A stretch of 37,595 nucleotides of DNA from the sequence record NC_019708.1, one strand, 5' to 3'. Source of the DNA: Enterobacteria phage mEp235. This document shows, in pieces, positions 3,528 through 37,395 of the stretch (its first letter is position 1; each line of letters starts with the position of its first letter). A program made the position numbers and the translations under genes. The notes under the pieces are model-generated. The model did no database searches and had not been told where the DNA came from. It worked only from the letters and a program-made list of their open reading frames with translations.

Positions 3528-4382
3528 ATGAGCAAAAAACAACTTCCGGTAGCACCGGCGGGTCGCCCCTGCGCGCGCGTTACCTGTGAACCATTACCGT
3601 CCGCACTGGACCGCTGGGACGGCGGGATCAAAGCTGCGGCCACCGACGACAACAGTATTTCTGTTTTTGATGTGATCGGGCAGGACTACTGGGGTGAAGG
3701 CGTAACAGCCAAACGTATCGCCGGTGCGCTTCGGGCGATGAATGGCGCCGACGTCACGGTCAATATTAACTCCCCTGGCGGGGACATGTTCGAAGGCCTG
3801 GCCATCTACAACCTTCTGCGTGAATACGAAGGCCGTGTGACTGTGAAGGTGCTCGGTATTGCCGCCAGCGCCGCCTCGGTCATTGCGATGGCCGGGGATG
3901 AAATTCAGATCGGCCGTGGTGCCTTCCTGATGATCCACAACTGCTGGGTCTACGCGATGGGTAACCGCCATGACTTTGCGGAACTGGCACAGTCTCTTGA
4001 GCCGTTCGATACCGCTATGGCAGACATCTACGCGGCGCGTTCCGGCCTTGATATGGCAGCCGTTCAGAAACTGATGGACGCCGAGAGTTATATCGGTGGC
4101 AGTGACGCTGTGGCGAAGGGACTGGCAGACAGCCTGCTTTCTGCTGATGCAGTCAGTGATGGCGATGAATCACCTGCGGCCGCGATTCGCAAACTTGATG
4201 CGCTGCTGGCTAAAACCAACACCCCGCGCTCTGAGCGCAGAAAACTCATTAAAGCCTTATCCGGGAGCAAGCCAGGCGCTGCTTCTGACCAAAAAGGCAC
4301 GCCGAGCGCTGCCACCATCGAAAACGAAACCATTGACCGACTGGAAGCCGCACTCAGCGGCCTGAAAGCGGCTGCCCAGTAA
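3528..4382 (+). CDS. head maturation protease, ClpP-like serine protease
   Basis: 284-aa ORF with ClpP-like core (NSPGGDMFEGLAIYN, GIAASAAS) and Ala-rich C-terminal tail. Confidence 0.8.
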   Translation: MSKKQLPVAPAGRPCARVTCEPLPSALDRWDGGIKAAATDDNSISVFDVIGQDYWGEGVTAKRIAGALRAMNGADVTVNINSPGGDMFEGLAIYNLLREYEGRVTVKVLGIAASAASVIAMAGDEIQIGRGAFLMIHNCWVYAMGNRHDFAELAQSLEPFDTAMADIYAARSGLDMAAVQKLMDAESYIGGSDAVAKGLADSLLSADAVSDGDESPAAAIRKLDALLAKTNTPRSERRKLIKALSGSKPGAASDQKGTPSAATIENETIDRLEAALSGLKAAAQ

Positions 4383-35000: not shown

Positions 35001-35455
35001 GCAGAGTCACCGCGATTATCTCCGCTCTGGTTATCTGCATCATCGTCTGTCTGTCATGGGCTGTTAATCATTACCGTGATAACGCCATCGCCTACAAAGA
35101 ACAGCGAGATAAAAAAGTCAGTGAGCTGAAGCAGGCGACCGCCACCATCGCTGACATGCGGAAGCGTCAACGTGATGTAGCAGAACTCGACGCAAGATAC
35201 ACAAAGGAGCTTGCTGATGCTAACGCGACTATCGAAAGTCTCCGTGCTGATGTTTCTGCTGGTCGTAAGCGCCTGCAAGTCGCCGCCACCTGTGCAAAGT
35301 CAACGACCGGAGCCAGCAGCATGGGCGATGGAGAAAGCCCAGGACTTACAGCAGATGCTGAACTCAATTATTACCGTCTCCGAAGTGGAATCGACAGGAT
35401 AACCGCGCAGGTTAACTACCTGCAGGAATACATCAGGACGCAATGCCTGAAATAA
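34997..35455 (+). CDS. Rz: spanin inner-membrane subunit Rz
   Basis: 152 aa, N-terminal TM helix then coiled coil. Confidence 0.85.
35211..35402 (+). CDS. Rz1: spanin outer-membrane lipoprotein Rz1 (embedded in Rz, +1 frame)
   Basis: lipobox VVSAC and Pro-rich mature region; exact start codon (35211 or 35217) uncertain. Confidence 0.65.
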
Positions 35456-35486
35456 TTTTTTTGCAAATCACAAAGTCAATTTAATG

Positions 35487-35511
35487 AGCCTCGCGATGCG
35501 GGGCTTTTTTA
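35487..35511 (+). terminator. intrinsic terminator after lysis cassette
   Basis: AGCCTCGC-GAT-GCGGGGCT hairpin followed by six T. Confidence 0.6.
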
Positions 35512-35660
35512 TGTCCGCAGTAAACGCGCATTCTCGTGCGCATATCAACCAAGAGCTTTTCGGGATATGAGACAGAGACAGGACGGTGGCTTACATCGTG
35601 CCGCTCTTGGGCTGTCCATGTCTGCGAGAACTGGCTCATATCACCAAAAAGGTAAATACG

Positions 35661-36389
35661 ATGTCCAATATCATCCCGATTGATTTCGAAGGCCATCCCA
35701 TGCGTTTTTCTGACGATGGCTGGTTTGACGCGACTGCGGCAGCTGACAAGTTCAACAAGGAGCCGGCTCAGTGGCTTAGGCTTCCTGAGACTGTCCGTTA
35801 CATCGAGGCGTTAAAGAGTAGATATGGGAATATCACATATGTAAAAACCAGCCGCGCTCGCAAAGACCGTGGCGGCGGAACATGGCTTCACCCAAAACTG
35901 GCGGTCAGATTTGCTCGATGGCTTTCTGTAGATTTTGAGATCTGGTGTGATGAGCAAATTGACGCAATCATTCAGGGTTCCGTTCATCATATCGACGATG
36001 AAAGAATAAAGGCTATTTTCCTTCTGGATAAATCTCAGCCATGGGAAAAGAGGTTTAGCGATCCGTTTTATTCTGCGATGTTCAAAATGTCAGGGCTGCC
36101 CCGTCATCGACCAGGTCGTCGCCCCGCACTATTTGGGATGATCAGTGCCAAGTGGGTATATGGCCAGGTATTACCACCAGAAGTATATGCAGAGGTTAAA
36201 AGACGGCTGGCTGCGGGAGACAAAATCCATCAGCACCTTAAACCTGACGCGCTGACATTGGTTGAGCGACAGATCATTGCCGTTACCAGCATTGCCAATG
36301 GGTGCTCTGATTATCGTGATTTCGAAGCGCGTTGCATGTCGGCATTCCCGGTGAAAGGGCAGATGAAATTGCTCTATGCGGCGGCCTGA
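35661..36389 (+). CDS. KilA-N domain protein
   Basis: 242 aa from ATG 35661; N-terminal motif GTWLHPKLAVRFARWLS typical of KilA-N. Confidence 0.55.
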   Translation: MSNIIPIDFEGHPMRFSDDGWFDATAAADKFNKEPAQWLRLPETVRYIEALKSRYGNITYVKTSRARKDRGGGTWLHPKLAVRFARWLSVDFEIWCDEQIDAIIQGSVHHIDDERIKAIFLLDKSQPWEKRFSDPFYSAMFKMSGLPRHRPGRRPALFGMISAKWVYGQVLPPEVYAEVKRRLAAGDKIHQHLKPDALTLVERQIIAVTSIANGCSDYRDFEARCMSAFPVKGQMKLLYAAA

Positions 36390-36391
36390 TC

Positions 36392-36649
36392 ATGAGCACC
36401 CGAATAATAGAATGCGCCTCCAGAGCGGGGCGCGACTTCTCAGAGTTCATGAAAGGCGAGAAGGGCATGATGGAAGCATTGGCCTCGGTGGATGAGTTTG
36501 GCGAGCAACTCCGTATTAACGGTTGCGTCAACCATCACTTTGTCAGCTACATGATGCGGAACTCGATCATGCAGGCATTCATGGACATGGCAAAAGCCGA
36601 GAGGAAAGAAGAGCGCCGGCGTAAGCGAGCGGAAGCAAAAGCGAAGTAA
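36392..36649 (+). CDS. hypothetical protein with basic C-terminal tail
   Basis: 85 aa, start 2 nt after KilA-N gene stop. Confidence 0.45.
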   Translation: MSTRIIECASRAGRDFSEFMKGEKGMMEALASVDEFGEQLRINGCVNHHFVSYMMRNSIMQAFMDMAKAERKEERRRKRAEAKAK

Positions 36650-37044
36650 CCATTACAAAGCTCATCTGCGGGTGGGCTTGATAATGAAACCGGAGTTAAT
36701 TTCTGGTCACTAATTAACGGCAGCACCGCGAAACAACCCAAGCCAGAAAGTGGGGAAATAACACTGGCAGCCACTGAAAGATAAACCTCCTGCCTTATGG
36801 CAAAAAAGATTCTTTGTGGTGGCGGACTGATGGAAAGACATCGGTTATTGCAGAGGCCATTCAATGAGTGGTCTCGACAATGGCTTATACCCTACACGGG
36901 ATAACTTAACTGATATCCCTTTTAACGGATAAACGGAGCCAACAATGGCAGAGATTATTCTCATGACTGAAGAACAGAAATTCCAGTTAGAGATTTATAA
37001 ACTGGTCATGAACCAGAACGCCGTCTGGCGTGGAGGTTAGCCTG

Positions 37045-37395
37045 ATGCCTGCGTTAATACCGAGAGCATGCCGCAAGCGTGGCTGCCCTGGCACAACCAC
37101 TGACCGCTCAGGCTATTGTGATAAACACCGCAATGAAGGCTGGCAACAGCATCAACGAGGTCAGAGCCGACAGCAACGGGGATATGGTAGCAAATGGGAT
37201 GTTCTAAGAGCCACCGTGCTTACTCGGGACAAACATTTGTGCCAGAACTGCAAGCGCAACAATCTGATCTCTCCCGCAAAGACCGTTGACCACATCATCG
37301 CTAAGGCCAATGGTGGCACGGACGACATGAGCAACCTCGAATCTCTTTGCTGGCCCTGTCATAGGTCGAAGACTGGCCGCGAACGGTTCAAATGA
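37045..37395 (+). CDS. HNH endonuclease (terminase-associated)
   Basis: SD ggagg 8 nt before ATG 37045; Cys4 zinc site and HNH motif; position immediately upstream of terS. Confidence 0.85.
   Translation: MPALIPRACRKRGCPGTTTDRSGYCDKHRNEGWQQHQRGQSRQQRGYGSKWDVLRATVLTRDKHLCQNCKRNNLISPAKTVDHIIAKANGGTDDMSNLESLCWPCHRSKTGRERFK

Follow-up and report, generated by a model that had tools for sequence, protein, structure and literature searches.

Enterobacteria phage mEp235 is an HK97-like lambdoid Escherichia phage, and its sequence record NC_019708.1 (37,595 nucleotides (nt), the whole of which is called the window below) carries, between the lysis genes and cos, a two-gene cassette that is the subject of this analysis. 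The cassette encodes a KilA-N-domain protein of 242 amino acids (aa) and a basic 85-aa protein, and is preceded by an intrinsic terminator and a structured leader and followed by a stem-loop (Table 1). The local order is Q, a tR′-like terminator, S, R, Rz with embedded Rz1, the cassette, a truncated DUF2560 open reading frame (ORF), a gp74-type HNH endonuclease gene and cos. Rz (Pfam Phage_lysis, 2.7e-39), with the Rz1 ORF inside it, adjoins the cassette on the upstream side. The initial annotation of this DNA had recognized a terminator, a KilA-N gene, a coupled 85-aa gene and Rz/Rz1 upstream of them, and all of these are found where it had placed them. The stretch 35400-36950 is 100% identical to PV340540.1 and shares 98.3% identity with HK022 and 97.8% with HK97. 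The counterparts of the two proteins are NP_037755 (Gp73, GenBank AF069529) and NP_597908 in HK97 and the products of hkbK and hkbL in HK620. The genes themselves are already present in databases as uncharacterised genes, and the more useful result is their control unit, i.e., a covariation-supported RNA leader with two folds that lies outside Rfam.

Table 1. Positions of the cassette genes and of the elements around them in the window.
Feature	Position	Strand	Basis
Predicted intrinsic terminator, 5′ boundary of the mobile unit	35486..35512	+	Pattern scan; minimum free energy (MFE) fold; RAH1 copy; 81/94 contexts
H2, short GC hairpin GCGCA-UUCUCG-UGCGC, then A-rich linker AUAUCAAC	35526..35541	+	MFE fold; recurrence
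ALT helix, 5′ strand CCAAGAGC	35549..35556	+	Directly upstream of and overlapping the anti-Shine-Dalgarno; perfect 8-base-pair complement to 35603-35610
Long imperfect leader hairpin	35555..35653	+	Covariance model R1; covariation
ALT helix, 3′ strand GCUCUUGG	35603..35610	+	Apical part of the long hairpin
KilA-N + P63C protein, 242 aa (HK97 gp73 homologue); ATG 35661, stop 36387-36389	35661..36389	+	Pfam; phrog_1136; homologous clusters; AlphaFold2 (AF2) model
85-aa partner: three helices, basic C-terminal tail, invariant Cys8, Cys45 and His49	36392..36649	+	phrog_875; alignment; AF2
Two-tier 3′ stem-loop directly past the stop codon, right boundary of the unit	36651..36686	+	Shared bases; conserved fold

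The KilA-N gene and its 85-aa partner

Pfam assigns two domains to the first protein, KilA-N (PF04383, residues 8-105, 80.2 bits at a cut-off of 23.8) and P63C (PF10546, residues 117-192, 43.9 bits at a cut-off of 26.1), and none of the ANT, P22_AR/P22_AR_N, AntA and Rha domains; the KilA-N call of the initial annotation was right, and P63C is added to it. A part in antirepression or host takeover, at which the initial annotation had hinted, is conjecture for a protein with this domain content and without a match to defence systems. This architecture recurs in 1133 homologous clusters across Enterobacterales, Alcaligenes, Delftia and Acinetobacter. When searched with Foldseek, the AF2 model of the protein (mean predicted local distance difference test (pLDDT) score of 84) resembles the DNA-binding APSES domains of Mbp1 and PCG2 weakly (probability 0.66-0.84, E 0.05-0.13, target template-modelling (TM) score 0.4-0.47) and, likewise weakly, DdrC. 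The Mbp1 and PCG2 matches appear to agree with the known relationship between KilA-N and APSES domains and to be uninformative on P63C. A Bro/KilA-N network of proteins is said to have been set out by Iyer and colleagues in 2002. For the two cassette proteins, no NCBIfam family, no match in a sequence search of the PDB and no link to a known defence or anti-defence family were found, and literature searches returned no study of HK97 gp73, P63C, ORF11CD3 or the mEp-phage cassette.

The second ORF starts 2 nt past the TGA of the KilA-N gene. Its product, with K or R at 10 of the last 19 residues, matches phrog_875, a family without assigned function, and no Pfam family. The family is narrow (137 clusters at 90% identity; 21 clusters only, at 50% identity, in a deep profile search among 1.84 billion proteins), and all of its members with a source name come from Enterobacterales (Escherichia, Enterobacter, Klebsiella, Citrobacter, Salmonella and Rouxiella). 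The motifs ECASRxGRDFSxF..GEK and GCxNxHF are invariant, and AF2 predicts three helices, among them a long basic C-terminal one (mean pLDDT 90.7), for which Foldseek gave no significant fold match. A KilA-N gene lies immediately upstream in all 80 IMG/VR loci that encode the 85-aa protein, 69 of them with the 165-aa type (4-nt ATGA overlap) and 11 with the 242-aa type (2-nt gap). To judge from this comparison of loci, the two genes form a conserved, translationally coupled pair, in keeping with the initial annotation, which had described a tightly coupled partner with a Lys/Arg-rich C-terminus.

The sole distant relatives of the 85-aa protein occur as N-terminal parts of fusion proteins with T5orf172/MUG113, a domain of the Bro network that is GIY-YIG-like. 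Such proteins, with an 85-aa-like helical domain as their N-terminus, are P0132, P0134 and the cargo proteins of L148 and L125, and some of them are encoded directly behind the leader unit described below; the 85-aa protein may be a nuclease-less derivative of a gene of this type. In HK97 (L002, 3497-3730), the partner gene encodes 77 aa that are family-like over residues 1-54 only, and its stop lies about 25 nt ahead of the usual one. This copy has probably been shortened by a frameshift, and the basic tail is lost from the protein of this reference phage.

The distribution of the pair among related phages bears on its role. In the related phage HK75, which forms plaques, the terminator, the leader and 73 codons from the start of the KilA-N gene are retained, and what corresponds to 35880-36815 of the window is missing, i.e., the remainder of the KilA-N gene together with the 85-aa gene and the 3′ flank. 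HK620, Stx2 phage 1717 and PhiR49_1 carry a gene for a 165-aa KilA-N+ORF11CD3 protein ahead of the same 85-aa gene, and in Klebsiella phage vB_Kpn_RAH1 (RAH1 below) the pair is found between the major-tail and tape-measure genes. Because of the loss in HK75, the replacement of the HK620 type and the relocation in RAH1, genome comparison presents the gene pair as dispensable, mobile cargo in a variable slot, neither structural nor packaging in function, the two conserved late roles that the initial annotation had set against its own idea of cargo. The corresponding proteins of HK97, HK022, HK620 and Stx phages are old unknowns, and their place in a dispensable mobile unit narrows what they can be.

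Terminator, leader and 3′ stem-loop

The terminator stem-loop (GAGCCTCGC-GAT-GCGGGGCTT, 35486-35506) has nine pairs, six of them G-C, and a loop of 3 nt, and is followed by TTTTTT; its activity is predicted. The hairpin is present in the MFE fold of 35456-35530, and its folding energy alone is unexceptional (z = -0.31). The unit within the tail genes of RAH1 begins with the same kind of terminator (AGCCTCGGCATAGTCCGGGGCT plus T6), and a crude scan of at most 90 nt upstream finds a terminator hairpin with a T run in 81 of 94 distinct leader contexts, the remaining 13 including at least five with imperfect terminator-like hairpins and six with none by eye. The terminators upstream of related units comprise 52 distinct stems with compensatory changes. 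Across these loci the predicted terminator is the 5′ edge of the cassette and travels with it. The initial annotation had put a strong terminator after Rz/Rz1: a hairpin does stand there, but it is not the end of the lysis genes, as it moves with the cassette.

H2 recurs in other units with different stems (UGCGU/ACGCA, GCGCUU/AAGCGU and UGCA/UGCA) and is followed by the long imperfect hairpin of the leader. In the basal helix of this hairpin, 35555-35560 (GCUUUU) pairs with 35648-35653 (AAAGGU), which contains the Shine-Dalgarno (SD) sequence of the KilA-N gene. The RAH1 leader is 88.8% identical to 35499-35663 of the window, and the KilA-N coding sequence that follows it is of the other type. 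Across loci the leaders fall into several sequence types, that of mEp235 being type A, and independent MFE folds of types B (HK620), C (Stx phages and PhiR49_1) and D share one architecture, in which a long imperfect hairpin has an upstream CCUUU-like anti-SD paired to the SD at its base, a purine-rich, asymmetric bulge in the 3′ arm, where CUGUG is conserved, and three more helices above. The SD is paired in the MFE folds of types B, C, E, F, G and H.

Most helices were missed by RNAalifold on a plain MAFFT alignment of four leader types, because such an alignment is not structural, and this approach was replaced by folding each type and by a covariance model, R1 (29 pairs), built from types B and D only. 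R1 scores 51.4 bits (E about 8e-12) on the type A leader of mEp235 and about 47 bits on type C; it has exactly one match in the whole window, one in P22 and none on the right end of lambda. As G-U pairs are frequent in the leader helices and R1 gives 130-140 bits on the plus strand vs 19-24 bits on the minus strand, a plus-strand RNA is indicated. Two alignments of related sequences fitted to the model were scored, A6 with 22 distinct sequences and A7 with 61, the loci of the latter having been retrieved with the pattern ACAGGCTCAN{1,9}CTAAAAGG. In A6, 94.7% of the cells are paired (shuffles 72.5%), 23 of the 29 pairs show changes on both sides, and the covariation score is 0.643, vs 0.250 when shuffled and 0.05-0.14 with the partners slid. 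The corresponding values for A7 are 93.8% (shuffles 86.4%), 16 of 29 pairs and a score of 0.229 (shuffled 0.105), and in neither alignment were the observed values reached by any of 500 shuffles. The pairs of the basal helix vary as CG/UG/UA, CG/GC/UA and UA/CG, so that the pairing of anti-SD and SD is kept by compensatory changes. Rfam 15 has no match at gathering score in the whole window, and its sole match in 35400-37100 is at chance level (E 0.65).

The ALT helix crosses the long hairpin and abuts its base, and the two therefore cannot coexist. The pairing recurs at an equivalent position in nine versions of 6-8 base pairs (bp) that differ in sequence, with the 5′ strands CCAAGAGC, CCCGAGAG, CGAGAG, CCACCGA, CCCCGAG, CCAAGAA, CAAGAG, GAAAGU and CCAAAGA. 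Shuffling of the apical region gives P 0.006-0.14 for the single versions and a combined 1.5e-7, the versions being not fully independent. When folding is restricted to the nascent transcript ending at the ALT 3′ strand, ALT is part of the MFE fold in 10 of 10 leader types tested, with all of its pairs in eight and with 4/6 and 5/7 of them in two type C leaders; in the full-length leader, the computed long hairpin is 8-20 kcal/mol more stable than ALT. Computed in this way, the leader can take up either of two conserved folds that exclude each other, and the SD is paired in one of them.

Could the conserved leader be something other than RNA, either coding sequence (an upstream ORF or an N-terminal extension) or palindromic DNA, for instance a site for recombination or homing or a miniature inverted-repeat transposable element (MITE)? 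A GTG at 35586, inside the non-coding leader, does open a longer ORF in frame with the KilA-N ORF, and mEpX1 gp61, P22 rha and phi80 rha are annotated from starts within their leaders. However, types B, C and D have a stop in the upstream frame, which is fused in frame in others, so that no reading frame is conserved, and in RAH1 the GTG extension is ended by a stop codon (23-aa ORF), from which it follows that the leader is conserved as nucleic acid and not as protein. As for a DNA element, units flank homing-endonuclease-like genes and mosaic joints coincide with unit edges; but the substitutions are compensatory across helices, G-U pairs and the strand preference of R1 point to RNA, and orientation and distance to the ATG are fixed, unlike those of a MITE. 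We regard both versions of this explanation as very unlikely.

The annotated GTG starts of P22 rha (L214, 39575), phi80 rha (L221, 2240) and mEpX1 gp61 (L005, 1190) sit in the apical loop or the 3′ bulge of the leader. Since an ATG preceded by an SD lies 36-75 nt downstream, these genes are probably annotated too long and, if the leader works as proposed below, their RefSeq starts are probably too far upstream. In other leader types, a stop codon overlapping the SD ends the extension frame. Further candidates for this region were rejected: a conserved upstream ORF, as frames and stops differ among leader types; a minus-strand small RNA or 71-aa antisense ORF at 35481-35696, since the helices contain G-U pairs, the R1 scores favour the plus strand and no U tract exists on the minus strand; a site for integration host factor (IHF) in the A-rich linker, by eye, its WATCAANNNNTTR consensus being lost across leader types; and a boxA/nut-like element (CGCTCTT in type A), this stretch being the ALT 3′ strand, which covaries away in other types.

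T7-type RNase III sites are cut at a position that matches the 3′-side bulge of the long hairpin. It is conceivable, and in our view rather doubtful, that this hairpin would chiefly be an RNase III processing or stability element that frees the mRNA of the cargo, its effect on translation being secondary and ALT a mere folding intermediate. The helices are long and near-continuous, with a run of 18 bp in type C, the purine-rich bulge is conserved (GUGAGA, GUGCGA or GCGAGAA), and the 5′ terminator hairpin and the 3′ stem-loop would shield the processed ends. The type A helix of mEp235, on the other hand, is interrupted, and it is difficult to see why ALT would be retained in nine sequence versions if nothing but the final hairpin counted.

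At the other end of the unit, the bases of the 3′ stem-loop are the only downstream ones common to nearly all loci. Their fold is kept in 27 sequence variants, with compensatory versions in two loci (L047 and L090). No U tract follows this stem-loop, hence no 3′ terminator was found, and it is probably a 3′ stabiliser or a processing boundary. The 295-nt gap after the 85-aa gene (36650-36944) folds at -96.8 kcal/mol vs -71.8 kcal/mol for shuffled sequences (z = -5.0); beyond its first ~37 nt it is mosaic, 36687-36867 being missing in many loci, and it contains no Rfam match and no second copy of the leader.

Pattern scans found no sigma-70-like promoter behind the terminator in mEp235, RAH1, HK620 or P22; the P22 terminator is visible by eye and absent from the pattern-scan list. 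As no promoter-like site is present, transcription must come from upstream. The initial annotation had placed the cassette in a cargo slot like that of bor in lambda: cargo is borne out by HK75, HK620 and RAH1, whereas separate termination and independent, bor-like expression are not, given the missing promoter and the 3′ stem-loop without U tract.

This bears on the question of whether the cassette is a lambdoid moron, which passages quoted from Juhala et al. 2000 (in PMC2629481 and PMC4104026) describe as an extra gene, usually with its own promoter and a downstream terminator. The likeness lies in extra late-operon genes that are present or absent among close relatives; the difference is that the terminator of the cassette lies upstream, and since neither a promoter of its own nor a 3′ terminator was found, it is not a classical moron. 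A related possibility is that the genes are moron or defence cargo expressed from their own promoter in the lysogen, where they would protect the host by BstA-like abortive infection or act as a bor-like fitness factor. Although lambda has bor in the slot from Rz to cos, the cassette is accessory among close relatives, and BstA, a prophage defence protein with a KilA-N-like N-terminal domain, sets a precedent (PMC8585504), this is unlikely. The promoter-like site is missing in four unit types, a 5′ terminator combined with an SD-pairing hairpin is the opposite of constitutive expression, and the cassette has the orientation of the late operon and, in RAH1, is found within the tail genes. Moreover, PADLOC gave no real match to defence systems, only a 30-residue, 19.6-bit partial match to the candidate PDC-S22, and the C-terminal domain is P63C and not that of BstA.

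The unit in front of other genes

R1 finds further copies of the leader ahead of other genes, each again preceded by a terminator and H2. The cargo behind them includes HNH_3(-AP2) homing-endonuclease-like, P22_AR_N+ORF11CD3, ANT and Phage_pRha proteins, T5orf172 proteins with an 85-aa-like N-terminus, a family 2 glycosyltransferase (GT2), a tail-tip-fibre-like protein and several unknowns. The leader of P22 rha (L214, 39528-39646) scores 45 bits with R1, and its terminator and H2 are visible in the sequence; that of phi80 rha is of type B, with 135.7 bits, the same score as HK620, and phi80 has a second copy of the unit ahead of ORF x171.28. Type A-like leaders occur also in Erwinia, Hafnia and Salmonella phages and in Yersinia prophages.

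The late regions of several phages contain two or three copies of the unit (L221 (phi80), 3756-3855; L012, L014 and L016, 4422-4521; L059, 613-726; L086, 515-628), and these precede unrelated genes, i.e., an N15 gp59-like ORF, a gene for a 155-aa unknown protein and HNH-AP2 genes. In phage Dewey (L091, 1330-2009), an HNH_3+AP2 gene lies exactly between a full leader (1330-1443) and the KilA-N gene, and about 40 nt from the end of a type B leader (3′ arm and SD) are duplicated before the KilA-N ATG, with a weak match at 1897-2009. This arrangement suggests that insertion or recombination happens within the leader.

The nearest described concept to the unit of terminator, H2 and leader is that of the promoter-early plus stem-loop (PeSL) cassettes of T4-type phages, which consist of a strong sigma-70 promoter and a terminator stem-loop and are found beside non-essential ORFs in plastic regions (Arbiol et al. 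2010, PMC2839356). In both cases a short conserved regulatory cassette with a terminator stem-loop is repeated by non-essential ORFs, and modular shuffling has been proposed; the resemblance is functional only, as the mEp235-type unit has no promoter-like site and includes a leader of ~100 nt with two folds that would act on translation. By analogy with PeSLs, repeated units could mediate the exchange of cargo. Literature searches found no RNA motif linked to Rha or antirepressor genes, and a portable unit of terminator, H2 and two-state leader appears to be undescribed so far in the searchable literature and in Rfam.

Because it stands ahead of many accessory genes, the unit may be a general adaptor for cargo that needs a tight off-state. 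We propose tentatively, with somewhat less than even confidence, that lambdoid phages of Enterobacterales carry a so far undescribed family of mobile cis-regulatory RNA cassettes, to which the unit belongs. It would serve as an adaptor for potentially toxic cargo by blocking un-antiterminated transcription and by gating translation through a kinetic or factor-dependent switch, would offer in its conserved sequence a handle for recombination when cargo is exchanged, and may stand behind the regulation of rha. If this is true, the adaptor lets regulators of the Bro network (KilA-N, Rha, Ant), T5orf172 proteins and homing endonucleases enter anywhere in the Q-antiterminated late operon.

Proposed mode of action, related systems and flanking sequence

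For the cassette of mEp235 itself, we consider it reasonably probable that it is a mobile, dispensable module of two cargo genes in the late operon of HK97-like phages, doubly locked by the terminator and the leader gate, and encoding the KilA-N+P63C protein and its coupled, basic 85-aa partner. As the terminator stands at its 5′ edge, no promoter was found and the 3′ stem-loop is without U tract, the module would form part of the late transcript that is antiterminated by Q. The terminator would be passed by Q-modified polymerase from pR′ only, and for this reason the genes would be silent in the lysogen, where the terminator would insulate the cargo from stray upstream transcription, and would be expressed late. 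On the nascent RNA, the ALT helix would form first; the more stable long hairpin would then pair the anti-SD with the SD and thereby gate or limit translation of the KilA-N gene. The gate might be opened during a short kinetic window on the nascent RNA, before the long hairpin displaces ALT, in the style of the MS2 maturation-gene leader; by RNase III-type cleavage in the long helix, in the style of T7 and the lambda N leader; or by a trans-acting factor. The two proteins would be a DNA-binding regulator of the Bro network and its partner. Late in infection they would target, in a Rha-like manner, DNA or regulators of the host or of competitors. The control unit of gp73 is also that of Rha, Ant and further members of the Bro network; by analogy with these, a late-acting DNA-binding regulator or interference protein is what gp73 probably is. 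Its mis-expression may do harm, and the 85-aa protein would be its co-translated partner.

Several points weigh against this proposal. It rests throughout on sequence comparison and computed folds, and the strength of the terminator and its read-through under Q are assumed from lambda biology. The scan for a sigma-70 consensus leaves room for a weak or activator-dependent promoter. In the leader of mEp235 itself, the MFE fold of type A pairs no more than 3 of the 10 bases in the SD region, and the SD-paired fold (-63.3 kcal/mol) lies 2.8 kcal/mol above the register-shifted MFE fold (-66.1 kcal/mol), the ALT state (-61.0 kcal/mol) making a third within ~5 kcal/mol. The covariation counts of A6 and A7 overstate the independence of the aligned sequences. 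Distant KilA-N+P63C genes, e.g., those of Yersinia prophages, occupy the same post-lysis slot without the 85-aa partner. The function of the proteins is the weakest step and amounts to guesswork; Foldseek searches of both AF2 models against the PDB and BFVD gave nothing with E < 0.001.

Comparison with described systems places these suggestions in context. The pair of gp73 and the downstream ORF in HK97 consists of the same genes (DNA 97.8% identical to mEp235), and in HK620 hkbL follows a KilA-N gene and has a product about 95% identical to the 85-aa protein, with the difference that the upstream protein is KilA-N+ORF11CD3 (165 aa) and not KilA-N+P63C. The rha genes of P22 and phi80 lie in the same slot (past Rz and before the packaging genes), belong to the Bro-network class and have the same unit of terminator, H2 and leader; they differ in their DNA-binding domain, which is Phage_pRha and not KilA-N, and have no 85-aa partner. 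Leaders that sequester the ribosome-binding site (RBS) are found ahead of T4 I-TevI-type homing-endonuclease genes and of the MS2 maturation gene, and the lambda N leader contains an RNase III site. In those leaders, the SD is paired in a stable hairpin of read-through transcripts, and a metastable early fold or processing is needed for translation. The leader described here is alike in holding the SD in a stable hairpin and would likewise depend on an early fold or on processing, and the unit also precedes HNH homing-endonuclease-like genes; the difference is that it has neither a sequence relation to them nor an Rfam family.

If the unit works as proposed, it accounts for the silence of late-operon cargo in lysogens and for its dosage during lysis. 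The regulation of rha, long unexplained, may then have the same basis; the product of this late-operon gene, according to the literature as summarised in PMC4936722, blocks phage growth in IHF-deficient hosts and is harmful there. Such a unit would be a compact natural part, combining a terminator with a translational gate, and a marker for cargo genes in prophages, and the expression of KilA-N, Rha and Ant genes becomes directly testable with simple reporter constructs.

The GenBank records PV340539-PV340569 belong to a 2025 resequencing series of mEp235, mEpX1/2, mEp234, mEp506, PhiR49_1 and PhiR49_1_star, the last being a "_star" variant phage, and use the labels "KilA-N-P63C" and "KilA-N-ORF11CD3". 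These labels suggest an unpublished study in which the KilA-N proteins matter; literature searches found no such paper. Downstream of the gap that follows the 85-aa gene, a 31-aa ORF (36945-37040) matches the first 22 positions of DUF2560 only (HK620 hkbM-like) and is cut short at the start of the gp74-type HNH endonuclease gene (37030-37395). In the PV340540 record this HNH gene is unannotated, and small minus-strand ORFs are called across 37030-37395 instead.

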